36,548 nucleotides of DNA from Bdellovibrionia bacterium (GTDB taxonomy: Bacteria; Bdellovibrionota; UBA1018), in assembly GCA_041752095.1 (NCBI GenBank), contig JBGSHQ010000133.1, forward strand, positions 1-36,548. The letters run 5' to 3'. Positions 9,107-36,547 of this stretch are shown one piece after another. Every line of letters begins with the position of its first letter. Position 1 is the first letter of the stretch. The notes beneath the pieces were generated by a model that had not been told where the DNA came from, made no database searches, and saw nothing but the letters and a program-made list of their open reading frames with translations. Made by a program: the position numbers and the translations under genes.

Positions 9107-10681
9107 CTACCGACAAAACCGATACTTATTCCATGAAAACGAATGACACCTTAGCTTAGACCAGTCCATCCCTGGAACCTTCGGTTCGTGGCCGACAGGG
9201 GAAAAAATGACATAGTCTCGGCTTTCATTTGTGCGACCGTGAGATACGTATTCTCCGCTTAGAAGGGTTTTCGAGTTCAAATAGATTGGGGAAAATTTTT
9301 CTAGATACCAGCTATGCAACCCGCCAATCCAGTCACCGGAATCGGTCGTGAGTAGTTGTTCACCCACTCCCACACCGACTAGTACCAGCTTTCCTCGATC
9401 AGGAAGCTTTTCATAAAAATTTCGAAACGATACGAAATCGTAATTGATCTTGGCTGGACTCCCACCCTCTATGTTAGAGCGTGCCATTTCGAAGGAATGC
9501 ATGAGTCCAAAGGCAAGAACACCTATTGAGAACGCACATTTGATTAAGAAGGGAGTTTTTAAAAGACTGGACCGAATTCGCGTCGAATAACTAACAACAT
9601 AAGCTACCGCTGCAAATAACACTGGGATGGAAAAAAGGAAGTATCTTCCCATAACAGCGAAATGATTCGCATTCGTCGATAAAAGCATTAGGAAAGGGCC
9701 ACCAAATCCCAAGGACAGTAAAAATATCGCAGAATGCGAGACGACTCGATCTCGAATAAATAGTGTCCTAGTACAGAGACCTAAAAGTGCGACCAGTAAA
9801 ATCGAAAGAATGATCCATCCACCTGTAGTCCCAAAAGGAAGTAAAAGCGAAACTTGTTTCGTAAGCGTTTCTGGTACTTCGAGTATGGTTTTTCCGAGTA
9901 CCTTCCATTTCGATCCATCTGGAATCCATAGGACATAGCGGCACTCGAAAATATAAAATAGGTAAGGAATGACCCCGGGGCTGATATCTTTTAGGAGCTT
10001 AAATGCTTCGATTCCAACCCGGAAGTGGGATCTTTTTTTCCATTCGAGAATTTTATTCAAGATAATCGAAACTGAATAAATTAGTAAGAGGTAAGCTATC
10101 AGTACGAGCGAGATATGAAAAAGTAAACCTAGAGTTGTGACGGCAGAAACGCGAATGAAGTTTTTTTGAGAAAAGTTACTCTTGATGAAAAATAATCCCT
10201 CCCAGGTGGCGAGCGTCATGAAAAATATGGCCCAAGAGTAAAATCGAGTTTCAGTAGCCCAATTAAATGGACCGGGTGCAGAAATAAAAAGACAAAGAAT
10301 GAATGAGCCAACAAGGGTAGAACGACTCCATTTTTCTGCATAAAAATAAGTCGCTATCGCAGAAGCCGCATAAACAAGAATATAGGGCAAACGCCAAAAT
10401 AACTCGGGAGAACTTTCGAGAAGCCAGCGGAGACTTCCGCACTTATAGAGGAGTCGCAGTACCAAGTTTTCTCCAGGTGGATTCGCAACATACTGCCTGA
10501 TTTGCCACCAAAAATTTTTCTCTCCGTGCCAGGGACTAAAAGCAGGAGCAATAGCTGAGATTTCATCTGCCCAAAAACTTAGTTTTGATGCTAAATACGC
10601 CTGAAGTGTCACCACGAAAACGATAACAATTGTAGCGGTAACCCAGCCGAATTTACTCTCTTTTTCGTAATGACTGTCCAT
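9107..10681 (-). CDS. GT-C-like polytopic membrane glycosyltransferase (ArnT/PMT_2-like)
   Basis: 524 aa with many TM helices. An acidic SFWADEISAI motif follows TM1 directly (D39/E40 at 10562-10567), as in GT-C enzymes. A soluble C-terminal domain is present. Confidence 0.6.
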   Translation of the reverse strand: MDSHYEKESKFGWVTATIVIVFVVTLQAYLASKLSFWADEISAIAPAFSPWHGEKNFWWQIRQYVANPPGENLVLRLLYKCGSLRWLLESSPELFWRLPYILVYAASAIATYFYAEKWSRSTLVGSFILCLFISAPGPFNWATETRFYSWAIFFMTLATWEGLFFIKSNFSQKNFIRVSAVTTLGLLFHISLVLIAYLLLIYSVSIILNKILEWKKRSHFRVGIEAFKLLKDISPGVIPYLFYIFECRYVLWIPDGSKWKVLGKTILEVPETLTKQVSLLLPFGTTGGWIILSILLVALLGLCTRTLFIRDRVVSHSAIFLLSLGFGGPFLMLLSTNANHFAVMGRYFLFSIPVLFAAVAYVVSYSTRIRSSLLKTPFLIKCAFSIGVLAFGLMHSFEMARSNIEGGSPAKINYDFVSFRNFYEKLPDRGKLVLVGVGVGEQLLTTDSGDWIGGLHSWYLEKFSPIYLNSKTLLSGEYVSHGRTNESRDYVIFSPVGHEPKVPGMDWSKLRCHSFSWNKYRFCR

Positions 10682-10692
10682 TTGATTTTACT

Positions 10693-11598
10693 TTACTTCG
10701 AGTTATTCGTGCGAGGCAAGAAGTAGGGCTTTTCACTCAATTCCAGTATCAGGGCTTTCGTTCCGAGGATGGCAATATTTGGCGACCGTCTGAAAACCGC
10801 TTTTATTAAAGTATAAATGAATAGTTTTCCTATGAGTGCAGTAAAAACCAGCCTCGGACAGTGCCGATGGAAGAACCGCACCGAATTTCGCATGACGAAT
10901 GAATGGTGTAAGGCTCGGTCATGAACTCGCGCTCCACCTCTCGGCGCCGCGAGGTGTTTTAGGGACGCTTCCGGATCGAAGACGATACCGTTAGGAAACT
11001 CTTTTGATAATCGTAGAGTCGCATCACTCTCGAAGTAGTATCCATTCCCCCCGAACCCTTCATCGAAACCATCGATGTGGAGAAGTTTTTTTCGATCGAA
11101 AGACATATTCGCGCCTTGGGCGAAAACGCAAGTTTGGCGAATCAGGCCGTTAAACCGAAATAGCATTCCGCCGGTCCATCGGTTAAATTTTCCGACTGCG
11201 CGTACCCTTTCGGGCGGGAGATCCCCCGTAGGCTGTTCGACTCTTCCAGCGACCCCGGCGATCATTTTATCGGCGTAATTCTTTAAGTGCGCTTCGACGA
11301 GTCTGGGGGACGGAACGACATCATCATCGATGTAGAGAATCACATCGGACTTCGCCTCCTGGAGCAGTCGATTCATATTAAAGACAACACCTTTCGGTTC
11401 GGTACGGAGATGGCGAATGAGTGGAGATCGTGACTTTAAGTAGGTATCGAGTTCAGGGAGGGGTGGGGAGTTCTGGTCAGATACTAAAATTTCATCGGGC
11501 AGCCTCGTACCCGCTAGAATTCCTTCGATCGTGTCGCGGACTTCTTCGAATCGACCGAGGGTCGGAATGGCTAGGGTGAGGGTGAGGGAATTTCCCAT
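10693..11598 (-). CDS. Glycosyltransferase family 2
   Basis: LTLAIPTLGRFEEVRDTIEGIL...ILVSDQNS...VILYIDDDVVPSP. 301 aa with no TM segments. Confidence 0.8.
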   Translation of the reverse strand: MGNSLTLTLAIPTLGRFEEVRDTIEGILAGTRLPDEILVSDQNSPPLPELDTYLKSRSPLIRHLRTEPKGVVFNMNRLLQEAKSDVILYIDDDVVPSPRLVEAHLKNYADKMIAGVAGRVEQPTGDLPPERVRAVGKFNRWTGGMLFRFNGLIRQTCVFAQGANMSFDRKKLLHIDGFDEGFGGNGYYFESDATLRLSKEFPNGIVFDPEASLKHLAAPRGGARVHDRALHHSFVMRNSVRFFHRHCPRLVFTALIGKLFIYTLIKAVFRRSPNIAILGTKALILELSEKPYFLPRTNNSK

Positions 11599-12823: not shown

Positions 12824-13899
12824 AATCGCTCTGGATCGTACCTGAAACTGCCGGAGGAATTCGTAACTACGCTGATGTGCTCGCTCCCGAAATGGGTGAG
12901 GAGTGCCGTGTTGTGTTTAATCTTCCGGAGTGGCGTGAAATCGAAAACGCGGCAGAAAAACTCGTTCACATCCAACACGAGTTCGGACTTTTTGGTTCTA
13001 AGCTTCCAGGTTTTTACATTTTCCCTAAATGGATGAAGCGGATGAAAAAGGCGAACCCGTCTAAAAAATGGATCGTGACTTCGCACACAGTTTTAGGAAA
13101 AGACTGGAAGTATTCGACTTCGGGTCGTGGGATTCGAGCTCTTATTTACCGATTTTTAAATGGGGTAGTTCTCCCTTTTTCTCGGAGATCGTGGATCCAA
13201 GGCACGTGGGGACAGTTCGATGGAGTGATCGTCCATTCTAAACACCAGCTCGAGACCGTGCTAAGTTCGGGATGTCGAATGGTCGAAGTCATTCCGCATT
13301 TTGTCCCGAAGGTTTCGATCGGGGTTTCTTCGGTTTCACGCGACTCCTCTGTTTTACTCTTCGGATATTTTTCCCCAGAAAAAGGGCAGGATATTGCGAT
13401 TCGTGCATGGGCAATACTGGGTCAGGATGCACCGAAATTAGTCCTAGCGGGAGGAGTACGCCGAGAGGAAGACCAGTGGTATTACGATTCCTGCATTCAT
13501 GAAATTTCGAGGCTTGGGCTTAAAGATAAAATCGAGATTACGGGGTATGTGAAATCCGAGGAAGTAGGCGGATTTTTTTCTCGTGCTGGGATCGTACTTG
13601 CGCCTTTCCGAGAAACAAGTGGTTCGGGTTCTCTCGCTACCGCTCTAGGATTTGGATCTGCAGTGCTTGCTTCGGATCTTCCATTAAACTGCGAGATCGA
13701 TGAAAGAGTTCCTGGGAGTATTACTTTTTTTAAATCGAATTCAACGGAATCACTCGCAGCTGAGATTAAAAAATTAATGAACGATGCTTCACGAATCGAG
13801 AAACTTCGTGAATGCGCAAAAATTTATGCGGATAGTGTAACACCTGAAAAAATCGCGCGTCTCCATCACGCGTTTTATCAGAAAGTGGTGCGGTCTTGA
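12820..13899 (+). CDS. Glycosyltransferase family 4 (GT-B, group 1)
   Basis: VHIQHEFGLFG...VLLFGYFSPEKGQD...ITGYV...IVLAPFRETSGSGSLATALGFGSAVLASDLP. The start forms an ATGA overlap with the upstream gene. Confidence 0.8.
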   Translation: MKSLWIVPETAGGIRNYADVLAPEMGEECRVVFNLPEWREIENAAEKLVHIQHEFGLFGSKLPGFYIFPKWMKRMKKANPSKKWIVTSHTVLGKDWKYSTSGRGIRALIYRFLNGVVLPFSRRSWIQGTWGQFDGVIVHSKHQLETVLSSGCRMVEVIPHFVPKVSIGVSSVSRDSSVLLFGYFSPEKGQDIAIRAWAILGQDAPKLVLAGGVRREEDQWYYDSCIHEISRLGLKDKIEITGYVKSEEVGGFFSRAGIVLAPFRETSGSGSLATALGFGSAVLASDLPLNCEIDERVPGSITFFKSNSTESLAAEIKKLMNDASRIEKLRECAKIYADSVTPEKIARLHHAFYQKVVRS

Positions 13900-15194
13900 A
13901 AAAGTGGATCTCTCACGGAGCGTGGAATATTTTAGAGCATGGGCTCACTCGTGGACTCGATGCTGCCGCTACGCTCATCATTCTCTGGTGCGTGCCCACT
14001 GAGGTTTTTTCCCAGCTCGCAATATCCCAGGCTTACGTCGCCCCGATGCTTTTTTTCTTTATCTCTCCCGAAACCGCTTTATATCGCGATTTTGGAAAAT
14101 GGATGGAAGAGGGACCGGCTGCGATGCTCTCTCGGCTTAGGTACTTTAGACGATTTGCTTATTTTAAAGCCTTCGCGGCCATTTTACTCTCTGCCGTCAT
14201 AGCTGCGATCACTTCGAGTCTGCCCGGATCTGATTATTCCTTTAGCGATCGATTTTCAGCTCTCGTCTGGGCTTTTTCACTCCCTCTTATTCCCCAGGTC
14301 TCTGGCCCGGACCGAGAATTTTTACGTCTGAGTCTTGATCTAAAAGTATTAAACCTCGTCACACTTTTTCAGCGTGGGCTTTATTTAGTTCTACTCCTGC
14401 CGATCTTAATATTTTTTCCGGGCTCATTTCCTCTTTTAGGAGTGACCTCGGTCTTAACCCTCATCCTCACGAGCTGGTTTTCGCGTCGATGGGTCGAACG
14501 CCACTTTTTAGGAGTATTATCCCCTCACTTTAATTTTTCAGAATTCGTTCGAGTGAATCGAAATGCGTTTCTGGGTTTTTCACTTGGAAACCACATCAGC
14601 GGCGTCATCATGGGATGGGTCCAAACCCTCGACTTATTTTTCTTAGGATGGTTTAGGCTTCCCGCAGCGGAAATCGGAATCTACAGCGTTGTTTTGAAAC
14701 TTTCTAATTTTACGCTCGCCATTCCTTATGCGGTCTCGAACTTCCATAACGTCGTATTAGGGCGAGGGCGCACGGAGCATGAGGGGCGCAGACTCGTTCT
14801 CCTGTCGGTAGGACTCCTTGCTTTCTGCGGTCTTCAAGCCTGGATTTTTTATCTTTCTGCTCCCTGGATTTTAGAACTCTTTTCACGTGGACGCTGGACC
14901 GCAGTCGACCAAAGCCGAATGCTCGGATGGCTTAGGTTTATTCTTCCTGCGAGCGCAGTATTCGCTTCGACCCTTTTCTGGGGGGGCTGGATGACGATAC
15001 GCAGGTCGTTATCTCGGTTAGTTTATTTCGTCTATGTGCCTTGGGCTGGGGTGAGTGCCTGGATTTATGCGTCGGCGGTATCTTCGGGTGGCGCTGACGC
15101 CGTAGCGCGGGCGAACCTACCCGTTATGGGTGTTTTAGTCGTTTTATTCACGCTCTTTTCTCTATATGAAGGATTCTGTGGAAAAAAACGCTAA
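13896..15194 (+). CDS. Wzx-like oligosaccharide flippase (MOP superfamily membrane protein)
   Basis: 432 aa with about 12 hydrophobic segments. It directly follows two cytoplasmic GTs. The TTG start overlaps the upstream TGA stop (TTGA). Confidence 0.65.
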
Positions 15195-16113: not shown

Positions 16114-17148
16114 ATGTCGAAACCGATTCTGATTACGGGAGCGGCTGGGTATATCGGATCGCATGCTCTGCGATTTTTTCTTAAGCAGGGCCGAACCGTC
16201 ATCGCACTCGATGATTTTTCGACGGGTAACCGCTGGGCGGTTCCATCTGATGTCCCCCTTTATGAGGGAGATTTTTCGGATCTATCCCTCGTCGCGAAAA
16301 TTCACCGCGAGACCGGATTCGATTCTGTCATTCATTTCGCAGCGAAAACTTCGGTCGAGGAGTCTGTAAAAAAACCAGGCCTTTATTATACCGAGAACAC
16401 AGCGAAGACGATTACTCTAATCGAGCCGTGTTTAGAGCTTGCAGTTCAGAACTTCATCTTTTCTTCGACCTGTGCTCTTTACGGGACTCCTCGTGAAATT
16501 TCTGCATCCGGTGTGAATGAGTCCACTCCCGTACTTCCCGAAAGTCCGTACGGGTGGAGTAAGTATTTTTCGGAGCGATGTTTAGAAGATATTTCGAAAT
16601 CGGGTAAAATGCGGTTCGCATCCCTCCGCTATTTTAATGTAGCCGGAGCAGAACCTGATGGGTCGCTTGGGGTATCGAATTCTAAGGTAAAAGCGCTCGT
16701 CACTGTAGCGGCCCAGGCAGCACACGATGATTCTAAAATCACTATTCATGGCGATGATTATTCGACGAAGGATGGGACTTGCGAACGGGATTATATCCAC
16801 GTCGTCGATCTCGTCGACGCCCACTATAGGGTTTTAAAATACTTAGAGGCCGGTGGCTCATCTACAGTTTTTAACTGTGGATATGGAAAGTCTTATTCTG
16901 TTCGAGAGATTATTTCGACGATGGAAAAAGTAGCGGGTAAAAAAATTCATACGGAAACCGGTCCTAGGCGAGCGGGAGATTTGAAAAGTATTTTTTCTGA
17001 CTCCACCCGACTTCGCACACTAACGGAGTGGAAACCCCGGTATGACGATATCTTCGAAATCTGTCGAAGTGCGTTTCAGTGGGAGTCAGTGGGCCATAAA
17101 AAAATTTCGTTAGGCGCCACTACTGGCATTTCAGCATCGAAAAAGTAG
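16114..17148 (+). CDS. galE: UDP-glucose (or UDP-GlcNAc) 4-epimerase
   Basis: ILITGAAGYIGSH, the catalytic SPYGWSKYFSE (YxxxK), LRYFNVAGAEPDGSLG and RDYIHVVDL. The ATG follows the fcl stop with no gap. Confidence 0.85.
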   Translation: MSKPILITGAAGYIGSHALRFFLKQGRTVIALDDFSTGNRWAVPSDVPLYEGDFSDLSLVAKIHRETGFDSVIHFAAKTSVEESVKKPGLYYTENTAKTITLIEPCLELAVQNFIFSSTCALYGTPREISASGVNESTPVLPESPYGWSKYFSERCLEDISKSGKMRFASLRYFNVAGAEPDGSLGVSNSKVKALVTVAAQAAHDDSKITIHGDDYSTKDGTCERDYIHVVDLVDAHYRVLKYLEAGGSSTVFNCGYGKSYSVREIISTMEKVAGKKIHTETGPRRAGDLKSIFSDSTRLRTLTEWKPRYDDIFEICRSAFQWESVGHKKISLGATTGISASKK

Positions 17149-18532
17149 ACCCTCGCCAGTAATTTTCACAACCTTTAGGTTCTGGGTAGAGAAGTTTAGT
17201 TTCTCCAACGAGCCACTTCAGTGATTTTTCTTTTATTTCCGAACGTTTTTCGATGTAAGGAGGATTAAATCCCGCCTTATAGATCATCATCGTGTAGGGA
17301 TAAAATTCACGAAGAACTTGGGTGTTTTCAGCTGTCGCCTTCCCCTGTTCTGTGAGGGTTCTCAGTTCGCGATTAATAGCCGACTGTTCTTTTGATGGAC
17401 AGTCGGTTTCTTTTTTTCTTTTAAACTCATGGTGGGCATTTTGCGAAACGGCGAGTGTCCATGTTGCCATAATCGCGATGGTGGCAGTGGCGAGAGTTTC
17501 TTTAGGAAACCATCCCGCAAACCTTCGGGCGATGAGTGCACCCCAGTAGGGCGCAAAGCCGATTAATGTGAAGACGAGGATAGCGCTCCATTGTTTACCG
17601 ACAGGTGTTTTTCCCAAGATCAGAAAATAGGCGACCGAGATGATGAAAAAAAGAAAGGCGGTGATTTGGGAGGTTGGCGCTTTTCGTCTTCGAAATAAAA
17701 ATCCGGCCCCTCCGATAAAGAGAAAGAGCCCTGAAAGGAAGAGTGGAATCATTTCTTTTCCCGAATAATAGGCGAGTAGTGTTCCAGGCGCCGTGTCCTG
17801 AGCGATTCGAGTCGATGCTTTTAAAAATCCATCGAGATACCCTAATACGGTTTCTCCGCGTTCGCTTGCGATCCAGAAGGTATTCGCGAGCAGTGTAACC
17901 CCGATACCTAATCCCGCAAAAATAGCAGAGCGCATCGATACTAGGACTGCGGTGAGTCCGACAGCAGGAATGAGAAAAAGAAAAGTAGGCTTAATAATGA
18001 AGATAAAAACAGAGAGCACGCCAGCGATTAGAAACATTTTCTTATCGAGGATACGGTATAAAAGTGCGCCTATGAAAAATGCGAGACCTTCTCCGAGAAA
18101 ACCGAAGACAAAGTATCCCCCGAATGGAATTTTAGAGAGTCCATAAGTAAAGATCCAGACTCCCAAAGGTACGGCTAACCAATTTCGATCTCGCTCGTAA
18201 CTCGTTCGAGCAAGGGTTACGAGAAGTGCAAAGAAACAAAAATAAATAAACATTCGTCCTGAATGCGCTATGTCTTCGTTCGCAATGCGGCTCACGGCCG
18301 TCGTTCCCCACGCCATAGGAACTCCGGCTGTAATGTTCGGATCGAAGGGTGGCGAATCAGACATCCGGTAGCCTTTTCCTTCCGACCAGTTCTGGGATGC
18401 CTGTGCAAAAAAAGACTCATCGAGTGTGAAATTAAAACAGCTCCAAGGGTTCTGATTTTTTAAGAGATCAGCCGCAGGTAGAAGGAGAGCGATGAAAACA
18501 CTAATGAGGAAAATGATTTTTTTTAGGGACAT
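17120..18532 (-). CDS. GT-C-like polytopic membrane protein with a soluble C-terminal domain
   Basis: The track ORF runs to 18610. I prefer the ATG at 18530-18532 (MSLKKIIFLISVFIALLLP...), which removes the overlap with the upstream gene and starts at a signal/TM helix. LDESFFAQAS follows TM1 directly (D38/E39 at 18416-18421). Confidence 0.55.
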   Translation of the reverse strand: MSLKKIIFLISVFIALLLPAADLLKNQNPWSCFNFTLDESFFAQASQNWSEGKGYRMSDSPPFDPNITAGVPMAWGTTAVSRIANEDIAHSGRMFIYFCFFALLVTLARTSYERDRNWLAVPLGVWIFTYGLSKIPFGGYFVFGFLGEGLAFFIGALLYRILDKKMFLIAGVLSVFIFIIKPTFLFLIPAVGLTAVLVSMRSAIFAGLGIGVTLLANTFWIASERGETVLGYLDGFLKASTRIAQDTAPGTLLAYYSGKEMIPLFLSGLFLFIGGAGFLFRRRKAPTSQITAFLFFIISVAYFLILGKTPVGKQWSAILVFTLIGFAPYWGALIARRFAGWFPKETLATATIAIMATWTLAVSQNAHHEFKRKKETDCPSKEQSAINRELRTLTEQGKATAENTQVLREFYPYTMMIYKAGFNPPYIEKRSEIKEKSLKWLVGETKLLYPEPKGCENYWRGSTFSMLKCQ

Positions 18533-20268: not shown

Positions 20269-21201
20269 CTAAAATCCAATCCGCTCTTTCTCAATAACGA
20301 GCGGGCGTTTCAGCACCTGGGTATGGATCGCACCGATATACTCTCCGAGGATGCCGATAAAAAAGAGCTGAACCGCGGCAAAAAGAAAAATCCCGATGAG
20401 GAGTGGAGCGAGACCGAGCTGGAACTGGTTCCAGAAAATGAGTTTCGCGATGAGGTAGAGAAATGCCATTACGAAGCCTAATAGCGACATCCCGAATCCT
20501 GCGATCGTCGCGATACGGAGTGGGACCTTCGAATGGCTCGTGATTCCTAACATTGCGATATCGTAAAGGCGGTAAAAATTATTACTCGTGACCCCACGTT
20601 TTCGCGCGGGTTGACGATACTCGATATGAGATGAGGGGTAACCCAGTTCCGAAATCAGTCCTCGGAAATAGGGGTAAGAATCCCCAATTTTTCGAAGTTC
20701 TTCGATCACGACACGGTCATAGAGTCCGAAGCCCGTATTATTCTTCGTAAGTTCGGTATCAGAAACCCGAGTAACGAAATCATAATAGGCCTTACGAATA
20801 AAGAACATGAGCGACGCTTCTTCACTCGAGGTCTTCACGCCGAGAACGACTTTAAAACCCTTTTTCCATTCTCGGATGAAGTCGAGAATCATTTCGGGCG
20901 GATCTTGGAGATCAGCAACGAGGAGAATAACCGCATCACCCGTAGCTTGGAGAAGTCCGTAAAAGGGTGATCTGATGTGCCCGAAGTTTCGGGTATTAAA
21001 AATAACTTTTACCCTTTTATCTTTAGTGGCCAACCCACGGAGGAGTTCCGGTGTTCGGTCCTTCGAGCAGTTATCGATGAAAATATGCTCGTAACTCGTG
21101 TCTGGGATAGTCGCGAAAGTCTGCTTCACCTTCTCGTAAAGGGCTTCGACATTTCCTTCTTCGTTAAAGCACGGTGTAACGATGCTGATGGTTGGGTTCA
21201 T
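20269..21201 (-). CDS. Polyprenyl-phosphate glycosyltransferase, GT2 (GtrB/ArnC/DPM-synthase-like, two C-terminal TM helices)
   Basis: ISIVTPCFNEEGNVEAL...FIDNCSKDRT...ADLQDPPEMI...GFKVVLGVK. The C-terminal hydrophobic pair is IATIAGFGMSLLGFVMAFLYLIA / LAPLLIGIFLFAAVQLFFIGILGEYIG. Confidence 0.85.
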   Translation of the reverse strand: MNPTISIVTPCFNEEGNVEALYEKVKQTFATIPDTSYEHIFIDNCSKDRTPELLRGLATKDKRVKVIFNTRNFGHIRSPFYGLLQATGDAVILLVADLQDPPEMILDFIREWKKGFKVVLGVKTSSEEASLMFFIRKAYYDFVTRVSDTELTKNNTGFGLYDRVVIEELRKIGDSYPYFRGLISELGYPSSHIEYRQPARKRGVTSNNFYRLYDIAMLGITSHSKVPLRIATIAGFGMSLLGFVMAFLYLIAKLIFWNQFQLGLAPLLIGIFLFAAVQLFFIGILGEYIGAIHTQVLKRPLVIEKERIGF

Positions 21202-21410: not shown

Positions 21411-21417
21411 AGATATT

Positions 21418-23493: not shown

Positions 23494-23495
23494 AA

Positions 23496-24317: not shown

Positions 24318-24412
24318 TTGGGTTCTATAATGTCGTTAATTTTGATGATTGGATAGAGGACTTTTCTAGATTTTTACTTGTGTGTGAGTGACTGTTTCAA
24401 TAAGGTGACAGG
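24318..24412. promoter_or_regulatory. Divergent intergenic region (transketolase operon leftward, membrane-protein pair rightward)
   Basis: Two divergent starts flank it. TATAAT lies at 24326-24331 on the plus strand. No good -35 was seen. Confidence 0.3.
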
Positions 24413-28083: not shown

Positions 28084-28910
28084 CGTGATTTTGGCATCCA
28101 AGGTGCCTTTTTCTCTGTGATCAGAGATTCGAGATAAATTTTATCTCGTAGAGTATCCATCGGCTGCCAAAACCCGGTGTGATGGTGCATGGAAAGCTTT
28201 CCGTCTTTCGCAAGTTTATTTAAAGGAGTTCGCTCGAGGATGCATTCTGCATCAGTCGATAGGTAGTCGCGAAAGTTTTTCTGGAAGAAAAAGAATCCAC
28301 CATTAATCCAATCGGAGCGGGACTGGGGCTTTTCCGAAAAATCTAAAACGCGCTGGTCTGTATCGACGGTGAGTTCACCAAAACGAGCACTCGGGTGCAC
28401 GCCGAGTACAGTTCCAGTATTTCCCATCTTTAAGTGAGCAGCGAGTTCTTTATCGAGTGCAACATCAGAAACACCGTCTCCATAAGTGACCGCAAAATGA
28501 TCGAATTTTTCACCCTGGATCGAATCAAAAGCACGTGCAACTCGTCCACCCGTCATACAGTCTACGCCGGTGTCGATGACTCGAACACGCCAGTTTTCCT
28601 GCTCACCTTTAGCCCCGAAAGCGTGGGCGGGAGTGTCCGTATTTTTTCTGTGGTCGATTTCGATATGGGTTTTTCGAAATCCATAGGTGAGAAAGTACTG
28701 TTTAATTTCCCAGGAGCGATAGCCGGCACAAATCACAAAATCATTAAACCCGAAACTATAATACGACCGCATAATATGGAGTAGGATGGGTTCTCCGCCT
28801 ACTTCAATCATCGGTTTTGGGCGAAACTGACTTTCTTCGGAAATTCGGGTTCCGAGGCCACCGGCTAGAATAAAGACAGGTACTTGGCTTGGAAGAACTG
28901 GATTTGACAT
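28080..28910 (-). CDS. rfbF: Glucose-1-phosphate cytidylyltransferase
   Basis: VFILAGGLGTRISEES..PKPMIEVGGEPILLHIM...DFVICAGY...MTGGR...TYGDGVSDV...INGGFFFF...GFWQPMDTLRDKIYLESL...KAPW match my recollection of Salmonella RfbF block by block. Confidence 0.9.
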   Translation of the reverse strand: MSNPVLPSQVPVFILAGGLGTRISEESQFRPKPMIEVGGEPILLHIMRSYYSFGFNDFVICAGYRSWEIKQYFLTYGFRKTHIEIDHRKNTDTPAHAFGAKGEQENWRVRVIDTGVDCMTGGRVARAFDSIQGEKFDHFAVTYGDGVSDVALDKELAAHLKMGNTGTVLGVHPSARFGELTVDTDQRVLDFSEKPQSRSDWINGGFFFFQKNFRDYLSTDAECILERTPLNKLAKDGKLSMHHHTGFWQPMDTLRDKIYLESLITEKKAPWMPKSR

Positions 28911-28952: not shown

Positions 28953-30536
28953 TTATCGTTTCTCATAACGACAGATCACTTCGTGCGGTCCACATTCGAT
29001 CTGAGTCCAGTGCGTCGCAAGCTCTGAACGAGGGTCGATTTTCTGGAGGAAGGCTTGCCTCGCATCGCTGATTAAAAGAGAACTTTTCCCGCTTTTTTCA
29101 GCCCCTGAGAGTCGAAGAGATTCGTGGTCGGTTAGAAGGGGATAGGTGAGTTCATCTCCCAGAAGAACTTCATCCCGGAAGATTTTTTTTAGGCTAGCTC
29201 GGACCCAAAGAACGTCTGAAATTTTACTTGGATCATCGCTGTATTCACGAAAATGAGAAATCGGCCATGTTCCTGATAGAGCGAGCGCAGAGAGAAGACT
29301 GAGTGTAAAAAAACTTCGGGGGATTCGTTGGCGCGATACGAGGGTACGAATGGATTCACATAATCCAAACCCAAAAAATGGAATGAGAAGAATGTCATAA
29401 TGAAACTGCATCATTCGTTGCGTAGCCGCCTCAGAAAGTAGGTTTCCGAAAATCAGGATAAAGCCTGGGATATAATAGGGGTTAAAGGCGCGTAGAGCGA
29501 TGAGTGTAATCGGTGCGGCAATCGTAAAGAGGTATTTAAATCGATCGCGAGTGGCGAGGTGCGAAATTATTTTTGAAATATTATCCAGTGGATGAAAGGC
29601 AAAGTTCTGGATGATTTCGCTGGGTGAGCTGCCTAAGTAAGAAAGGCGTTTAACGAGTTCACTGCCTGAACCCGATGAAGGCGTCCAGTGCGGTAAAATA
29701 TAGAAATAAACTGTGGCAAATACTGAAACACTAAAGGCTCCATACACCATTAAAAGCAGACGTGGGGGGCGAGATGAATTCGCATAAAGACCCCCAATCA
29801 TTGCAAAGGGGAGAAGGATCGCCCCCGTTTCTTTTGAGAGTGCGGCGAGTAGAAATGGAATGAGAGCAAGAATGGGTCTTTTTGCTCTCAGCGTGAGGAA
29901 TGCGAGAACATAAAACACCGCTCCTATGAGATCTTCCCGAAAATCAAAAATAAAACTTTCTCGAATTCCTCGTATGCAGAGGAGAAAGAAAAATATAAAC
30001 GCGAGGTGTTCCTTTTTTATTTCGTTTCGATAAACCCGAAATAGAAGCCAAAAACAAAAAAACCCTAATACGGACTGCAAAAGGGGAACCGCAAAGGGTG
30101 TGCCGAGGAGATTCGTTATTGGCCCAAGAAGAAGGAGGGTGAAGGACGAATGCTCACCGAGATAACTTTCGTTAAAGCAAACATGGCAACTTAATAAAGG
30201 ACTGCTGAAAGCCTTAAAAAGAGACTGATAAACAAATCCTGCATCATAGGCATGAACATTTAATGTGAGAAATCGAATCAAGTGGGCAAGAAAAAGAGAT
30301 CCAAAAATAAAAGAAATAAAGATCAGGGGTCTCTGTGCAATTCGGTTTCTTAACTGAGAAACAGATGGCAAGAGAAGGGTTTGCTTTTGGTAATTAAGGG
30401 CGAGAGCGAAAACGAGTGCAACCGCCATCCACGCGTCGAGCGATAAAAAATCTATTTTATAGAGTCTACCGCCACCTGTAATGAGAATGGCGGCAGAAAT
30501 AAAAAGAAAAAAATGAAGAAGAGATCGAATCTTCAT
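28953..30536 (-). CDS. DUF2079-like polytopic membrane protein (predicted GT-C-type glycosyltransferase)
   Basis: 527 aa with many TM helices. HAYDAGFVYQSLFKAF and GEHSSFTLLLLGP resemble the conserved loop and HFSP-type blocks I associate with DUF2079. It starts 3 nt after the stop of a GtrB-like GT2. Confidence 0.55.
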   Translation of the reverse strand: MKIRSLLHFFLFISAAILITGGGRLYKIDFLSLDAWMAVALVFALALNYQKQTLLLPSVSQLRNRIAQRPLIFISFIFGSLFLAHLIRFLTLNVHAYDAGFVYQSLFKAFSSPLLSCHVCFNESYLGEHSSFTLLLLGPITNLLGTPFAVPLLQSVLGFFCFWLLFRVYRNEIKKEHLAFIFFFLLCIRGIRESFIFDFREDLIGAVFYVLAFLTLRAKRPILALIPFLLAALSKETGAILLPFAMIGGLYANSSRPPRLLLMVYGAFSVSVFATVYFYILPHWTPSSGSGSELVKRLSYLGSSPSEIIQNFAFHPLDNISKIISHLATRDRFKYLFTIAAPITLIALRAFNPYYIPGFILIFGNLLSEAATQRMMQFHYDILLIPFFGFGLCESIRTLVSRQRIPRSFFTLSLLSALALSGTWPISHFREYSDDPSKISDVLWVRASLKKIFRDEVLLGDELTYPLLTDHESLRLSGAEKSGKSSLLISDARQAFLQKIDPRSELATHWTQIECGPHEVICRYEKR

Positions 30537-30539: not shown

Positions 30540-31484
30540 TTATTCTCGCTTCTCGATAAAGTACCGAGGGCGTCGTTTCACTTCTTGATAAATTTTTCCG
30601 AGATACTGCCCGATTACTCCCGTACATAAGAGCTGTACACCGCCGATAAAGAGAAGCGGCATCAGCATGGATGTCCATCCGGCAATCGCTTTTCCCGTAA
30701 TCCACGTAAAGATGACCCAAAGCCCAACTGCGAAGCTGATTAAACAGACAATGAATCCCAGCCACACGATAAAATTAAGTGGCTTCGTACTAAAAGAAGT
30801 TATCCCATCCCAAGCAAAGGCGAGCATTTTTCTGAGTGGATATTTCGATTCTCCTGCCATTCGCGCATCTCGCGCGTAGAAAATCTTTTTCGAGGGGTAA
30901 CCCAAGAGGGGAATGATACCCCGAAGAAATAGATTCGTTTCATCAAAGTGGCTGAGTGCTTCGAGTGCCCGAGTTCCAAGTAATCGACAGTCCGCATGGT
31001 TTTCTACGAGTTCGACTCCGAGTTTTTCCATAAATCGATAAAAAATTTCTGCGCTCCCACGTTTAAATCCTGAATCGGTAGAGCGATCTTCTCTGACTCC
31101 GTAAACAATTTCGTTTCCCTTGAGGAAGGCCTCAATAAACTGGGGAATAGTCGAGGCCGGGTCTTGGAGATCGGCATCTAAAGAGATAAGGGCATGAGCT
31201 TCGTCTCGCATCGACATGAGTCCTGCGAAGAGTGCACGCTGATGACCTACGTTTCTGGAAAGTTTAAGACCGCGATAAAGAGTCCCCTTAGCGATCCAGT
31301 CACTCGTTTTTGCCCATGTCCGATCACGACTTCCATCATCGATAAAACAGACAAAACTCCCCGGATCAATTTTTCCTGAAGTGATCAGTCCTTGGAGTTC
31401 GCTGCCCACGGCGTGAGCGGTTAAATCAAATGATTCTTCTTCATTATAGCAAGGAATGATGACGCCAATACGGGGTGCAGACAT
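30540..31484 (-). CDS. Polyprenyl-phosphate glycosyltransferase, GT2 (GtrB/ArnC-like, two C-terminal TM helices)
   Basis: IGVIIPCYNEEES...FIDDGSRDRT...SRNVGHQRAL...LISLDADLQDP...NEIVYGVRE. The C-terminal TM pair is FIVWLGFIVCLISFAVGLWVIF / LMPLLFIGGVQLLCTGVIGQYLG. It is a paralogue of 20269-21201. Confidence 0.85.
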   Translation of the reverse strand: MSAPRIGVIIPCYNEEESFDLTAHAVGSELQGLITSGKIDPGSFVCFIDDGSRDRTWAKTSDWIAKGTLYRGLKLSRNVGHQRALFAGLMSMRDEAHALISLDADLQDPASTIPQFIEAFLKGNEIVYGVREDRSTDSGFKRGSAEIFYRFMEKLGVELVENHADCRLLGTRALEALSHFDETNLFLRGIIPLLGYPSKKIFYARDARMAGESKYPLRKMLAFAWDGITSFSTKPLNFIVWLGFIVCLISFAVGLWVIFTWITGKAIAGWTSMLMPLLFIGGVQLLCTGVIGQYLGKIYQEVKRRPRYFIEKRE

Positions 31485-31528
31485 GTCAATGAGTGTATGG
31501 AATCTGGCTCGTATTATAAATAGCTATT

Positions 31529-32431
31529 TTACCGGGAGTGAATCGCATCCCGTATGGTCTGCTCGACTGAGATCGTGCGACATTCGCGACCGATTCTATT
31601 TTCGACCTTTGTGGGATCACCGATAATCTCAGGAATATCGTCGGCTCGAGCTGCACCTTCCGTAATCGAGTTGATCAGAGAGTCAGCTTCATTCGGATGG
31701 ATCTCCTTTAAGGCTGTTTCGAGAAGATATGCGATTTCGACTCCTTCGCCTGAGCATAGATTGAAGATTCCAGTAGCAGAAATCGAAGCCAGTCGTAGTA
31801 GCGTCATGCAAACATCGCGCGAGTCGAGGTAGTCTCTTAAATTCGAAAGGCCCGGAACGTCTTTTAAGTCCTTCGATCGCGCACGACGAATGACGGACTG
31901 GAGAACATAATGGGCTGGCTGTTTAGGAGCGATGAGCCCAAAGACTCGAGCTATCGTCAGTGGTGTTTTAGTTTCGGTACAGAGCCGAGCGAGCTCATTT
32001 TCTGCTTCGAGTTTCGTTGAAGCATAAACCGACCGTGGCTTTATAGGGTCCGTTTCTAATATTCTTCCCGATTTAGGCGCATAAATATGTCCGGTGCTGA
32101 CATAAATAATTTTGGGAACTAATTTTTCTTTTTTTGCCGCAGAAATAAATGTGTTTACCGTCGAAACCGTATCGGTAACATTGGTTTGATGGGCGAGTTT
32201 GGGATCTTTTTCGCATCCGGGGACAGAAACCATTGCCGCAAGCTGTAAAAGGACAGCGTATCCCCCAGGATAAACATTCGGCATTTGTTCGGTGAGTTCT
32301 TTAATGAGTCCAGGACTATCTTCAAGTCTCGATTGAATTTTATAGGTTTCAATTCCGAGTCGTTTTGCCGAACCCTCGATATAAGTGCCTAAACTCCCTG
32401 TAGCACCATTATAAAAAACTGCGCCCTTCAT
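31529..32431 (-). CDS. NAD(P)-dependent extended SDR (epimerase/dehydratase/reductase family); candidate 4-reductase/epimerase of the deoxyhexose branch
   Basis: Glycine-rich NGATGSLG near the N-terminus and the catalytic SVYASTKLEAE (YxxxK). 300 aa. It overlaps the upstream GT2 stop by 4 nt. Confidence 0.8.
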   Translation of the reverse strand: MKGAVFYNGATGSLGTYIEGSAKRLGIETYKIQSRLEDSPGLIKELTEQMPNVYPGGYAVLLQLAAMVSVPGCEKDPKLAHQTNVTDTVSTVNTFISAAKKEKLVPKIIYVSTGHIYAPKSGRILETDPIKPRSVYASTKLEAENELARLCTETKTPLTIARVFGLIAPKQPAHYVLQSVIRRARSKDLKDVPGLSNLRDYLDSRDVCMTLLRLASISATGIFNLCSGEGVEIAYLLETALKEIHPNEADSLINSITEGAARADDIPEIIGDPTKVENRIGRECRTISVEQTIRDAIHSR

Positions 32432-33186
32432 GTTTTAGTAACAGGGGTCAGGGATTTAGTATGATGTTCCCAGGCGATCGAAAAAATCCCGAGAAACGCA
32501 CTCGAGACTTCTTTAAAATTCGTATTACTTTCACCACGAACGCGGTTTTTAAAATAAATCGGAAACGTAAGAATCTTCATATTCGACCGTAAGAGCTGAG
32601 ATAGGGATTCGGAAAGATAAATATAACCCTCGTGTTTCTGATCGAGTCTGAGAAGAACTTCGAGAGCGCGAGGAGAATAAAATCGAAATCCATTCGTATA
32701 ATCAGGAATTTTCCAGTCGATGAGGATTCGGGCGAGTAGGTTTGCGCAGAAGGAAAGAATCCACCGTTTAAGCGGCCAACCTTCGATTTTTCCATCGGGG
32801 TAACGACATCCGAGGGCGACATCTCCCTTTTTCAGTAATTCAAGCCCCGTCGCGATTGCCTTCGGCTCATGCGAAAAATCGCAGTCCATTTCGATGTAAG
32901 CTGTGAATCCACGCCCCGAATCCCGTCCCCATTTAAGACCCGTACGCACGGCGCCACCGCGACCATCTTTTTTAGTACGTGTGATTAAATGGACGCGTTC
33001 TGCCCAGTTATTAGAGGCGATCGCATTTTTTATAATCGCTGTCGTTCCATCGGGAGACGAGTCGTCCACGACACAAACTGAAAAACCATCGCCAAGCGCT
33101 AAAAGGGCTTCGATAAGGGCAACAATATTATCTTTCTCGTTATAAGAAGGAAGAACGATGAGGGTGCGTGGTGTAGTGTTCGTCAT
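32428..33186 (-). CDS. Dpm1/Ppm1-like polyprenol-phosphate glycosyltransferase, GT2 (soluble type, no TM helices)
   Basis: LIVLPSYNEKDNIVALIEAL...VVDDSSPDGT...KKDGRGGAVRTG...YIEMDCDFSHEP...GCRY..G...GWPLKR..LS..AN...DYTNGFRFY match the dolichol/polyprenol-P-mannose synthase pattern. Confidence 0.85.
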   Translation of the reverse strand: MTNTTPRTLIVLPSYNEKDNIVALIEALLALGDGFSVCVVDDSSPDGTTAIIKNAIASNNWAERVHLITRTKKDGRGGAVRTGLKWGRDSGRGFTAYIEMDCDFSHEPKAIATGLELLKKGDVALGCRYPDGKIEGWPLKRWILSFCANLLARILIDWKIPDYTNGFRFYSPRALEVLLRLDQKHEGYIYLSESLSQLLRSNMKILTFPIYFKNRVRGESNTNFKEVSSAFLGIFSIAWEHHTKSLTPVTKT

Positions 33187-33193
33187 TTATTTT

Positions 33194-34411
33194 TTAGAGC
33201 TTAGAGAGTTCTGTAAATGCTTTTTCTAAAACCGCTTTGGCTGATGGGTCCAGTACCGGATGGCACCCAATCATAAAACCACGTGAAAGAATTTCATCAC
33301 AAGTTCCAAGCCCAGGTGCGCTTCGAGTTTCCAGCCCCGCGTTCGCCGGATGTCTCGCAAGGTTGCCAGCGATAATCGGTCGAGTAGCAACTCCTGCGGA
33401 TTCGAAAATTTCTTTTACTTTTGCGGCGGTGACAGGAGCCTTCGGGTTAAGTCGAAACGGAAAAGTCATCCAGGAATGACGGCGTTCCCGACGTGTGATT
33501 TTTTTATCCGTAAGATGTTCGGCGCCAATCAGTTTCATCCACGGTGCATTTTTTATCGTCCACTCATTCACGGTTTTTGCGAGTTTTTCTCGCGCTTCCA
33601 GCATTGAATCGAGTTTTCTGAGTTGAACTGACCCAATCGCAGCAGCGACTTCAGTAGGACGAACATTATATCCGGGCATAATAAAAAGAAAACGAGGATC
33701 GAGTTCAGGATTTTTCTTTGCCCACTCTGCGTGATCACTTCGATCCCGAGTCCATCCGTGTGCACGGATACTCTTTAAGTCGTCGTAAATTTCAGAGTCG
33801 TTCGTAGTGATCATTCCACCTTCCATTGTCGAAATGTGGTGGGAGAAAAAGCAGGAGTAGGATCCTGTAACGCCGAAGGTTCCAGCGTGGGTTCCATTGA
33901 AATGTGCGCCTAAGCTTTCACAGTTATCTTCGATCAGATCGAGATCGGCTTCTTCGCAGAACTGGTTTATCTTCGCCATGTCGGCCGCCTGGCCTAAAAC
34001 ATGGATTAAAAACATCCCTTTTGTTTTTTCGGTAAGCGCGCAACGCGCAGATTCAACATCGATTGCAAGCGTCTTCGGATCGACATCAACATAAACAGGA
34101 ACGAGCCCGAGCTGGACGAGTGGCCAGACCGTCGTTGGCCAGGCAAGCGCTGGAACTAAAACCTCGTCTCCCCGTTTCCAAGGAGCAGTTCCTCGCGATC
34201 TGCGAAGCATGAGATCGACCATGAGTAAATTCGAAGAGGAACCCGAATTCACCATGATCGAGTGCTTAGCACCGGTCCACTCAGCAAATTCGCGCTCAAA
34301 TTTACTAACGCGTTCACCCATGGTGAATTGGTTGCTGTCGAAAACCGCTTTTGCGGCTTCAATTTCTTCGGGACCAAAAGTAGTAGAGGCGAGGGGGTAT
34401 GAAGATGACAT
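33194..34411 (-). CDS. colD: PLP/PMP-dependent sugar 3-dehydratase of the DegT/DnrJ/EryC1 fold, ColD-type (GDP-4-keto-6-deoxy-D-mannose 3-dehydratase)
   Basis: YPLASTTFGPEEIEAA...FTMGERVSKFEREFA...MVNSGSSSNLLM...IEDNCESLGA...GTFG...SCFFSHHISTMEGG...IRAHGWTRD...MPGYNVRP. His replaces the Schiff-base Lys (H191/H192 at 33836-33841). The protein lacks the Cys-rich Fe-S insert I associate with RfbH/E1. Confidence 0.8.
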   Translation of the reverse strand: MSSSYPLASTTFGPEEIEAAKAVFDSNQFTMGERVSKFEREFAEWTGAKHSIMVNSGSSSNLLMVDLMLRRSRGTAPWKRGDEVLVPALAWPTTVWPLVQLGLVPVYVDVDPKTLAIDVESARCALTEKTKGMFLIHVLGQAADMAKINQFCEEADLDLIEDNCESLGAHFNGTHAGTFGVTGSYSCFFSHHISTMEGGMITTNDSEIYDDLKSIRAHGWTRDRSDHAEWAKKNPELDPRFLFIMPGYNVRPTEVAAAIGSVQLRKLDSMLEAREKLAKTVNEWTIKNAPWMKLIGAEHLTDKKITRRERRHSWMTFPFRLNPKAPVTAAKVKEIFESAGVATRPIIAGNLARHPANAGLETRSAPGLGTCDEILSRGFMIGCHPVLDPSAKAVLEKAFTELSKL

Positions 34412-34520
34412 TTAGAGTATTTCTTTCATGCGCGGAGAATTTCGTCCACCAGACTCTGTACCGATTTACGAACTTCTTAAGATTGACAACGCAACGCCCC
34501 CTAGTGGATGAAATGAGGAT
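34412..34520. promoter_or_regulatory. Divergent intergenic region between the colD operon and gmd
   Basis: Two divergent starts flank it. TTGACA lies at 34483-34488 on the plus strand. No clear -10 follows at 16-18 nt. Confidence 0.3.
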
Positions 34521-35528
34521 ATGAAAAAGGCGTTTATCACTGGAATTACGGGTCAGGATGGATCTTATCTCGCAGAGCTACTTCTCGAAAAGGGGTACGA
34601 AGTCCATGGCATGATCAGGCGTTCTTCGACTTTTAATCGGGAACGCATCGATCCTCTTTTTTTCTACGAAGGTTCGAAAGTTAAAGATCGCATTTTTCTT
34701 CATTACGGCGACCTCGCGGACGGGTCGGCACTGAACCGCATTCTTCGAACAGTGAAGCCAGAAGAAATTTACCACCTGGGTGCCCAGTCTCACGTACGGG
34801 TGTCGTTTGATGTTCCAGAATATACAGCTGATATCACCGGTACCGGAACGATTCGAATCCTAGATGCGATTTTAGAAACCGGAATTAATACGAAATTCTA
34901 TCAAGCATCGAGTTCCGAAATGTACGGGAAGGTGATGGAAGTTCCCCAAAAGGAAACGACACCGTTCTACCCTCGTTCTCCGTACGGCTGCGCAAAAGTA
35001 TATGCCTACTGGATTACGGTAAACTACCGCGAAGCCTATAATATGCACGCCTCGAACGGTATTCTGTTTAATCACGAATCTCCTCGTCGTGGGGAATCGT
35101 TCGTAACTCGAAAAATCACGAAAACTCTCGCTCGCATTATGGCGGGTAAGTCGAAGGACCTAGCTCTTGGAAACCTCGATGCAAAACGCGACTGGGGTTA
35201 CGCAAAAGACTACGTCGAAGCGATGTGGATGATGCTTCAAGCTCCGACCGCAGATGATTACGTCATTGCGACGAACGAAACCCATTCAATTAAAGAATTT
35301 CTCGATCTTGCGTTTGGGCATGTGGGTCGTGACTGGAAAGAGTATGTTCGCATCGATCCGAAATACTATCGCCCGACGGAAGTGGATCTTCTTATCGGAG
35401 ATCCATCGAAGGCCCGTGAAAAGCTCGGATGGAAACCGAAAACTTCCTTTAAAGAACTCGTACGCCTTATGGTCTATGAAGATTTAAAGGCAGAAGGTCT
35501 CGATCCCGAAAAGCTAATGAAGCACTAA
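34521..35528 (+). CDS. gmd: GDP-mannose 4,6-dehydratase
   Basis: [27 protein letters not shown]...HYGDL...[11 protein letters not shown]...[31 protein letters not shown]...[22 protein letters not shown]...[18 protein letters not shown] are near-identical blocks to my recollection of E. coli Gmd. Confidence 0.95.
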
Positions 35529-36547
35529 GCTTTAGCAGTTTTTCGAAGTAAAAATCCGACCGATGCGACGAGATAGCACCCTTCCGTTAGGAACGGGACC
35601 GAGTAGGGACTCATGAGAGATCCGAGAGATACAGTCGCACCTGCTGCGACTATCAGTGAAAAGAGATCGATTTGGTTCAACTTTTTCATATTGAGTACCG
35701 AATGGATCGAAAGCAGCAGTACTGGAAAGAAAAAAACTCCATTATACGCACTTCGCGGTGATGGAAGAAGAATATCAACGAAATAGACCGAGGAAAAAAA
35801 CCGAAGTGAAAAGATTTCTAGCGATTCAGTGCGGTTCTTCCAGAGTTTCCAGCCCGTGATGAGAGAGGCGAAAAGTACAGAGAGCATTCGAATGGAGTAC
35901 GGAAAAACTCCGAGTCCCATTTTAACGGCATAATGATGGATGATATTTCCAGGCCCACCGAAATTAATCACACCACGAATTACTGGGTCGCCCTCTATGA
36001 TTAACGGAAAGTTAAATGCTACGGGGGGTATGCGTTCATGGCTTTCGGAATATCGGAGATACCAGTCTTTGGCTGATGCTAAATAATCGAGCCACAAGTG
36101 GAAGGGATATTTTAGAAGCGTGGGAAGGACCGCAATGACCCCAACACCTGTAATCAATAAAACAGATCGAATCACTCTCTTTTCTCGAAAACTTAAAAAT
36201 AAAGTGAACCCCAATGTCTGTCGAAATACGACTGAAAGAGCGCTAAAAAATCGACTTGTATTTGAATGGGTAAAAACGGCGAGGGTCAGGGCCAGTGTAA
36301 GAAATGAATACTGCTGACCTCGTTCGAGATGGAAAGCCCACACCCCCGAGACCGCCATCACCCCACTCCCTAAGACGAGTGAAGCGAGAAGAGGGGTTCG
36401 ATTTTTTAATTTTTTTCGTAAACCGAAAAAAATTACTGCAGGGATTAATAGAAAAGCGAACCAGTTTAATAAAAAGTTCCACCACTTCTGAGTGAGCCAC
36501 GGAAGGTCTGCAAATAAACTATGAATCCAAAGCACTGTAGGCGGGGA
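35525..36547 (-). CDS. Polytopic membrane protein (DUF2029/GT87-like candidate); probably 5'-truncated by the window edge
   Basis: The track gives 35525-36535 with a GTG start. The frame stays open to the window end, so the N-terminus may lie outside the window. The protein is hydrophobic throughout. Its stop overlaps the gmd stop by 4 nt. Confidence 0.5.

Follow-up and report, generated by a model that had tools for sequence, protein, structure and literature searches.

Three lipid-carrier sugar synthases and an unannotated family of predicted GT-C glycosyltransferases in a bacterial surface-glycan locus

Introduction

Glycosyltransferases of the GT-C type shape much of the diversity of bacterial surface antigens, yet they are hard to spot by sequence. 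A Gtr-type system has three parts, one of each: the GtrA flippase, the GtrB polyprenyl-phosphate-glucose synthase, and a serotype-specific GT-C transferase. The 36,548-bp contig of a Bdellovibrionia bacterium that we analysed over its entire length (GenBank assembly GCA_041752095.1, contig JBGSHQ010000133.1; the window hereafter, and the only stretch of this genome in view) raises the question of how a surface glycan is assembled when three lipid-carrier sugar synthases of family GT2 (GT2a, GT2b and GT2c) and up to seven large polytopic transferase candidates (C1 to C7) are stacked in one locus, which is an unusual design. The original prediction had taken the seven proteins for candidate GT-C-like extracytoplasmic transferases that the three synthases could feed. 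The window is densely coding, and all seven open reading frames (ORFs) are present at the positions then given; with 8–14 hydrophobic segments per protein in a hydropathy scan, they are confirmed as large proteins with multiple transmembrane (TM) segments. In a collection of 15 billion proteins, the window proteins are singletons at 90% identity. The coordinates of the main features are collected in Table 1.

We consider it likely that the window is a surface-glycan locus that combines a cytoplasmic repeat-unit route with multi-module periplasmic three-component glycosylation. Such a locus would function as a Gtr/Arn-type apparatus for periplasmic glycosylation, present in several copies and set among the genes for a repeat-unit polysaccharide; the general scheme is already known. 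New is the family to which C4 belongs, a large unannotated family of predicted GT-C enzymes with a confident model, candidate catalytic residues and a recurring gene neighbourhood.

C4 belongs to a large unannotated family with a predicted GT-C fold

No match to C4 was found in Pfam, NCBIfam or the PDB sequences, including a search with a 20-sequence profile. The AlphaFold2 (AF2) model of C4 built from a 123-sequence alignment has a predicted local distance difference test score (pLDDT) of 94.2, a predicted template modelling score (pTM) of 0.94, and about 15 TM helices; a five-sequence alignment gave a pLDDT of 44.8 only. In a Foldseek search of the PDB with the deep model, ranks 1–25 are all GT-C enzymes, with E-values down to 1.6e-5 and probabilities of 0.93–1.00, among them yeast and human STT3, ArnT, AftA, DPY19, AglB, PglB, AftD, EmbC and ALG3. 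Ranks 26–39 are unrelated folds, mostly transporters, with probabilities of at most 0.60, and AftB follows at rank 40. By these results, C4 is a GT-C-fold enzyme, as modelled, of a family that Pfam, NCBIfam and the PDB sequences do not cover.

The conservation pattern among 123 family members points to a putative active site. The position of E200, the second residue of an Asp-Glu (DE) pair, holds an acidic residue in 99% of the members, and that of D344 in 98%. R304 never varies, and conservation is at least 94% for R478, R546, Y218 and N341. We regard E200, D344, R304, R478 and R546 as the candidate catalytic residues of C4. The model helices, together with the positive-inside rule, predict an inside N-terminus and an outside C-terminus, with E200, D344 and R478 on the outer face. 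Some C4 relatives bear C-terminal NPCBM and CHB_HEX_C carbohydrate-binding modules, which argues that the C-terminus of C4 lies outside the cell, in agreement with the predicted topology. Residues 1–156 of C4 (24413–24880) form four TM helices, which come before the helix leading into the DE loop; with these four additional N-terminal helices, the acidic motif of C4 follows about TM5, not TM1. A fused GtrA-like domain was considered for the four helices and rejected, as they have no likeness to the GtrA of locus L008 (described below) and no match to PF04138.

The size of the family depends on how it is searched for. An exhaustive HMMER search from a five-sequence start reached at least 1376 cluster representatives (clustered at 50% identity) with a cutoff of E ≤ 1e-3, of which 300 pass E ≤ 1e-30; the majority are full length, about 680 aa. 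A word-indexed protein search had returned 4 homologs of C4, and a 20-sequence C4 profile gave the same five proteins. The difference between 5 and 1376 members shows that the apparent orphan status of hydrophobic proteins in indexed searches is unreliable, and C1, C2, C3 and C5 may also have many relatives that the indexed search missed.

Gene neighbourhood of the C4 family

Close relatives of the window were found on contigs L001, L002, L019, L021 and L022 from three sequencing runs (compared loci and contigs are numbered with the prefix L). Their C4-type genes lie near GtrB-like GT2 genes, a split transketolase pair, RfbF-like, short-chain dehydrogenase/reductase (SDR) and DegT genes, and further unannotated polytopic proteins, DUF2079 members among them. 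The high density of polytopic genes, originally thought to be unusual for this locus, is also seen in the related contigs L002, L019 and L022; it is not unique to the window, and that claim was overstated. A GtrB-like GT2 gene adjoins the C4-family gene in nine loci besides the window (L001, L002, L003, L006, L008, L009, L019, L021 and L022), and a split transketolase adjoins it in L002, L008, L010, L021 and L022. A more distant JGI contig (L024) carries an operon of RfbF-like, dehydratase-like, C4-like and DegT genes. The host of the window seems to be Gram-negative, because a TonB-dependent receptor is encoded on the related contig L001.

The only relatives of C4 in GTDB are from Solirubrobacterales, at 23–29% identity, and in the metagenome-assembled genomes (MAGs) of this order GtrB-like GT2 genes lie near C4-family genes in four loci. 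In one Solirubrobacterales MAG (L009), a C5-like gene directly follows the C4-like gene, an adjacency that is also present in L019. In another Solirubrobacterales locus (L008), a C4-like gene, a GtrB-like GT2 gene, genes for both transketolase subunits and a GtrA gene (PF04138, 7e-14) lie within 8 kb. The gene context supports the view that C4 works in a three-component type system. The module of split transketolase, GtrB-like GT2 and C4-family gene occupies 22591–26395 in the window, 9326–17556 in L008, 32–4594 in L021 and 8382–14311 in L022.

Because C4-family genes recur beside RfbF/RfbG/RfbH-like genes, the split transketolase and GtrB-like GT2 genes, we infer that C4 moves a CDP-glucose-derived sugar that has been modified by the transketolase pair. 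The neighbourhood of GtrB-like GT2, split transketolase and CDP-sugar genes thus suggests a donor pathway that is testable.

Conserved lipid-carrier synthases and diverging membrane proteins

The assignment of the three GT2 proteins as polyprenyl-phosphate-sugar synthases, made in the original prediction, was borne out at the family level by matches to PDB sequences and NCBIfam models. GT2a and GT2b, which are 30% identical to each other, both align along their whole length with the Synechocystis GtrB structure 5EKP (GT2a residues 5–305, 1.2e-48; GT2b residues 6–310, 3.1e-54) and the ArnC structure (3.6e-26 and 1.7e-32). Their best NCBIfam model is PgfS (4.8e-58 for GT2a and 2.9e-62 for GT2b) and their second ArnC, and their C-terminal TM helices lie at residues 226–292 and 231–295, respectively. 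GT2c matches the dolichol-phosphate-mannose synthase of Pyrococcus furiosus (5MLZ, 5e-21) and, weakly, PpgS (3.2e-11); it has no C-terminal TM anchor, as in soluble catalytic subunits of the DPM1/PpgS type. None of the NCBIfam matches reaches its equivalog cutoff (PgfS, 197–211 vs. 500 bits; ArnC, 117–121 vs. 529; PpgS, 43 vs. 370). A fourth GT2 (10693–11598) is of the ordinary HpsN/AglG-like kind.

The synthases and their membrane partners have diverged from the related contigs to very different degrees. In comparisons with L002, L019, L021 and L022, the soluble enzymes are 67–91% identical overall, including GT2a at 82–91% (L002, L021 and L022), GT2b at 81%, GT2c at 91%, the transketolase subunits at 67–90%, and the RfbF-like protein at 71–87%, whereas the polytopic proteins are only 34–53% identical (C2, 40–53%; C4, 34–52%; C5, 41–52%), and no orthologs of C1, C3, C6 and C7 were found in these four contigs. 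Conserved synthases with fast-diverging membrane partners mirror the conserved GtrB with its serotype-specific Gtr transferases. The related contigs vary in gene order and L002 lacks C3, which suggests that polytopic genes are gained and lost in a modular fashion.

Moreover, the related loci bear large proteins that have no Pfam family and are unlike C1 to C7, at 90–1862 and 11249–12703 in L022, 7108–8340 in L019, 7507–9324 in L008, and 7581–9398 in L009. The stock of unannotated large proteins in this lineage therefore exceeds the seven in the window.

Are the other polytopic proteins GT-C enzymes?

GT-C enzymes have about 7–13 or more TM helices and a conserved acidic residue in an extracytoplasmic loop, which follows TM1 in most families. 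C1, C2, C3 and C5 share a GT-C-like layout: a short N-terminus and TM1 are followed by a loop of 69–96 aa and many further TM segments, and a soluble stretch of 108–140 aa ends the protein. The DE pair that the original prediction had pointed out in the first loop after TM1 was found in C1 (D39E40), C2 (D38E39) and C3 (D51E52), 6–18 residues past TM1. Composition-matched shuffles give a DE pair within 25 residues after TM1 in about 2–3% per protein, and three of five proteins with the pair is thus well above chance. In C1 (524 aa), D39E40 is the sole adjacent acidic pair and opens the 92-aa loop, and the C-terminal soluble part measures 130 aa. In C2, the block 'NPWSC..F..DES.FAQASQNWSEGKGYR', in which D38E39 is kept, is the best conserved stretch relative to the L002 ortholog; the start of C2 at 18532 is backed by this 470-aa ortholog, which aligns from the same Met, and by a recorded exact product of 470 aa. 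D45 of C5 is invariant in four sequences, down to 24% identity. The DE pairs of C1 and C3 are seen in single sequences only, with no homologs found, and the sidedness of the acidic motifs is deduced from the positive-inside rule only. As for operon position, C3 and then C2 follow GT2a, and the start of C5 overlaps the end of C4. Taken together, the layout, the acidic motif and the operon positions indicate that C1, C2, C3 and C5 are each probably a GT-C enzyme.

C6 is the only one of the seven proteins with a Pfam match, scoring above the gathering threshold of DUF2079 (PF09852; 72.3 vs. 28.2 bits, 5.7e-20); a literature search found no characterised member of this family. C7 is cut at its N-terminus by the contig end (35525–36547) and could equally well be a flippase or a polymerase.

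One may ask whether only C4 and C6 are GT-C proteins, the other five being Wzy-type polymerases, WaaL-like ligases, MOP-type (multidrug/oligosaccharidyl-lipid/polysaccharide) flippases or membrane proteins unrelated to glycans, so that the locus would hold two decoration modules rather than seven. MOP-type flippases among the five would also settle the flippase question discussed below. Consistent with this, searches of family models, the PDB and PHROGs matched none of C1, C2, C3, C5 and C7; C7 lacks both its N-terminus and a C-terminal soluble domain; and neither blastp nor hhalign detects any similarity among the seven. The DE pair after TM1 is nevertheless strongly non-random in C1 to C3 and falls in the most conserved block of C2, C2 and C3 stand in an operon behind GT2a, and the C4–C5 adjacency is kept across phyla. 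Absent profile similarity also says little here. Small hhalign profiles of C1 to C7, the Wzy-like protein and Escherichia coli ArnT gave probabilities below 6% throughout, a negative that carries no weight; even the deep C4 profile reaches only 0.5% against E. coli ArnT although Foldseek links the two folds, which shows that hhalign is powerless in this superfamily. We therefore regard a locus with only two GT-C proteins as unlikely.

Other searches with these candidates returned little. No PHROG match was found for the polytopic candidates, tblastn searches of plasmids with C2 and C5 yielded nothing of use, and metagenome scans with C3 and with a C5 alignment gave nothing; C3 found no homolog in any search. 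The orthologs of these candidates likewise match no Pfam or NCBIfam family model.

The flippase

The original prediction also held that the window encodes no small flippase of the GtrA or ArnE/F type, and this absence is real. No ORF of 60–250 aa with at least three hydrophobic segments exists in any of the six frames of the window, in a scan that recovered ArnE and ArnF of E. coli, as positive controls, as 4-TM proteins. The sole free small ORF in the window, at 4486–4857 on the minus strand, has no TM segments; its 123 aa have a GT2-like start ('IVIPTFNHARLFSRAIDSALIQT') and are then degenerate, and it is probably a glycosyltransferase pseudogene remnant, an N-terminal stub of a GT2.

The puzzle built on this absence, namely how the lipid-linked sugars are flipped, was overstated, since the window is one contig and alternatives have been published. 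Three-component systems in which a MATE-family flippase takes the place of GtrA have been described, as has a pentofuranose variant of the Gtr-type system (Kelly et al. 2024, PMC11127046). The absence could also be an artefact of the contig boundaries, with a GtrA or ArnE/F-type gene elsewhere in the genome serving a standard GtrA/GtrB/GT-C system present in several copies. The window is a complete contig, the homologous module of L008 has a GtrA gene, and some flippase genes are known to lie apart from their partner genes, such as gtcA in Listeria and Bacillus (PMC7389260). On the other side, neither a small ORF with 3–4 TM segments nor a GtrA in the precomputed Pfam lists was found in L001, L002, L019 and L022, which cover up to 17 kb each. 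We hold this explanation to be quite possible, with a chance somewhat short of even. Because the L008 module keeps its GtrA, the absence of GtrA from the window module is a genuine difference, but not yet an anomaly.

The labels 'Wzx-like' (13896–15194) and 'Wzy-like' (7092–8288), which the original prediction had attached to two further polytopic proteins, find no support in Pfam or NCBIfam hidden Markov models (HMMs) nor in the PDB, and the Wzy-like protein has no PHROG match either. The Wzx-like protein is still the only candidate for a MOP-type lipid-sugar flippase in the window. Its recorded NCBI product is 382 aa long, and a 432-aa form is found on a Logan contig.

A proposed two-route assembly scheme

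We propose the following scheme for the combined locus. In the cytoplasmic route, a repeat unit would be built on a lipid-diphosphate carrier by a WbaP-type initiating transferase, a WecG-type transferase, GT2 and GT4 transferases and methyltransferases, and the Wzx-like and Wzy-like membrane proteins would serve this route. The predicted phosphoglycosyl transferase at 5673–7070 marks such a lipid-diphosphate-linked repeat-unit pathway. In the periplasmic route, GT2a, GT2b and GT2c would use nucleotide donors to charge polyprenyl phosphate with sugars on the inner side of the membrane, some flippase component would turn the lipid-linked sugars across it, and GT-C-fold enzymes would pass the sugars to the glycan or another envelope acceptor outside the cytoplasm. 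Here C4 would deliver the sugar proposed above, and C1, C2, C3 and C5 would add GT-C enzymes that differ from it in acceptor or donor specificity. Should the remaining candidates prove to be GT-C enzymes as well, this lineage would use periplasmic glycosylation as a major route of assembly, beyond decoration.

Several observations weigh against this scheme. The Foldseek TM-scores of C4 are only 0.32–0.46 (best for AftA, 0.43/0.46), which indicates a shared fold class and not a close relative. C1 to C5 and C7 match nothing at E ≤ 1 in Pfam (PMT, PMT_2, YfhO, GT87/DUF2029, STT3 and others) or NCBIfam, and no meaningful match to the PDB sequences was found for C1, C2, C3, C5 (four sequences), C6 and the Wzx-like protein. 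The GT-C character of C6 depends on the Pfam GT-C clan, to which we take DUF2079 to belong. No flippase is assigned in the window, where the Wzx-like protein is without HMM support, and the donor sugars, the acceptors and all enzyme activities are ones that we infer. The original view of seven GT-C proteins thus stands for C4, by its AF2 model and Foldseek, while C6 is placed in DUF2079 only and the others are without an HMM match; in the model searches originally proposed (GT39, GT83, GT87, DUF2079 and YfhO), C6 alone found its family.

The scheme shares features with Gtr-type systems, in that GtrB-like GT2s lie beside polytopic transferase candidates inside a polysaccharide locus and the synthases are conserved while their partners diverge fast. 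Where those systems have a single synthase and a single transferase, this locus has three synthases and as many as six or seven transferase candidates. It also differs in the lack of a GtrA-type gene in the window and in transferase candidates that match no described GT-C sequence family.

A second likeness is to the mycobacterial arabinan and galactan GT-C enzymes (AftA, AftB, AftD and EmbA/B/C), since among the structural matches of C4, AftA has the best TM-score. Similar to the mycobacterial emb genes, C4 paralogs stand in tandem arrays in Solirubrobacterales MAGs (3 copies at 5659–14095 in L007 and 4 copies at 4819–14161 in L017), and, as in Emb and AftD, carbohydrate-binding modules are found at the C-terminus of some C4 relatives. 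Unlike C4, these enzymes do not come from an apparently Gram-negative host; they show no sequence similarity to C4, and in place of donors based on phosphoribosyl pyrophosphate and decaprenylphosphoryl arabinose, the donor pathway here relies on GT2 enzymes and nucleotide-sugar genes. A bolder version of the scheme would make the locus a Gram-negative counterpart of mycobacterial arabinan assembly, in which much of the surface glycan is built outside the cytoplasm by at least five GT-C enzymes of several undescribed families, from three different polyprenyl-phosphate sugars. One of these donors would be CDP-glucose-derived, remodelled by the split transketolase and delivered by the C4 family, and the GtrA of the actinobacterial module would have been dispensed with, the donors being flipped otherwise. 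As a whole, this version is doubtful.

The acceptor

The locus's own polysaccharide would be the acceptor in the scheme that we favour. Alternatively, the GT-C enzymes might glycosylate other acceptors, such as envelope proteins (as PMT and the Streptococcus mutans Pgf system do), lipid A or core (as ArnT does) or another polymer, and their clustering would then come from shared precursor genes. It fits this alternative that GT2a and GT2b have as their best NCBIfam match PgfS, a component of a protein-glycosylation system, with ArnC in second place, and that the DE-containing loop of C2 is ArnT-like, resembling 'PDETRYAEISREMLASGDW' of E. coli ArnT. The minus-strand run of RfbH-like, GT2c, SDR, GT2b and C6 genes also recalls the order arnB-C-A-(D)-T; as in the ArnB-C-A-D-T-E-F pathway, a single run of genes brings together a DegT-family enzyme, an ArnC-like GT2, an SDR and a membrane protein of the GT-C type. 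The matches of the PgfS and ArnC type are nevertheless far under the equivalog cutoffs, and the genes are interleaved with those for repeat-unit assembly. In further difference from the Arn pathway, the window has no ArnA formyltransferase, ArnD or ArnE/F, the ArnB equivalog cutoff is missed as well as that of ArnC, and the ArnT and PMT_2 HMMs match no candidate. On balance, other acceptors are an improbable explanation.

Gene map and other features of the window

Table 1. Main features of the 36,548-bp window and the evidence for each assignment (PLP, pyridoxal phosphate).
Feature	Position	Strand	Evidence
Initiating phosphoglycosyl transferase, Bac_transf + CoA_binding_3	5673–7070	+	Pfam 2.4e-65
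Polytopic protein of about 10 TM, labelled Wzy-like in the original prediction	7092–8288	−	Hydropathy; label without family support
C1, candidate GT-C-like transferase	9107–10681	−	Layout and DE motif; downstream of GT2 10693–11598
Polytopic protein labelled Wzx-like in the original prediction	13896–15194	+	Label without HMM support; 49%-identical ortholog in L022
C2, candidate GT-C-like transferase	17120–18532	−	D38E39 block; orthologs in L002 (53%) and L022 (40%)
C3, candidate GT-C-like transferase	18544–20268	−	Directly downstream of GT2a; D51E52 after TM1
GT2a, GtrB/ArnC-type polyprenyl-phosphate sugar synthase	20269–21201	−	5EKP, ArnC and PgfS matches; C-terminal TM hairpin
Split transketolase-like pair	22591–24317	−	Pfam; N-terminal subunit 23496–24317, C-terminal subunit 22591–23493
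C4, predicted GT-C-fold glycosyltransferase of an unannotated family	24413–26395	+	AF2 model, Foldseek, conservation
C5, candidate GT-C-like transferase	26392–28083	+	Start overlaps C4 end; D45 invariant after TM1
Glucose-1-phosphate cytidylyltransferase-like (RfbF-like)	28080–28910	−	TIGR02623 2.4e-83
C6, DUF2079-family polytopic protein	28953–30536	−	Pfam PF09852; directly downstream of GT2b
GT2b, GtrB/ArnC-type polyprenyl-phosphate sugar synthase	30540–31484	−	5EKP, ArnC and PgfS matches; C-terminal TM hairpin
SDR-type sugar epimerase/reductase, between GT2c and GT2b	31529–32431	−	Pfam Epimerase 1e-16
GT2c, DPMS/PpgS-like polyprenyl-phosphate sugar synthase catalytic domain	32428–33186	−	5MLZ and PpgS matches; without C-terminal TM helices
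DegT-family PLP enzyme, best match RfbH (CDP-sugar 3-dehydrase)	33194–34411	−	NF011936 6.6e-78
C7, polytopic, at least 8 TM, no C-terminal soluble domain	35525–36547	−	Hydropathy; N-terminus cut by contig end

The first 867 bp of the window contain no ORF of more than 51 aa and no Rfam match, a long non-coding stretch for a dense contig, and they lie at the contig edge. A soluble ORF of 308 aa follows at the start of the locus (868–1794, plus strand), upstream of two GT2 genes and without a Pfam or PHROG match. AAA_14/DUF4143 ATPase genes interrupt the glycan loci both in the window (21397–22584, plus strand) and in L002 (3500–4660, 8691–10004 and 16502–17629), and the glycan locus of L002 is also broken up by HipA and helix-turn-helix (HTH) genes.

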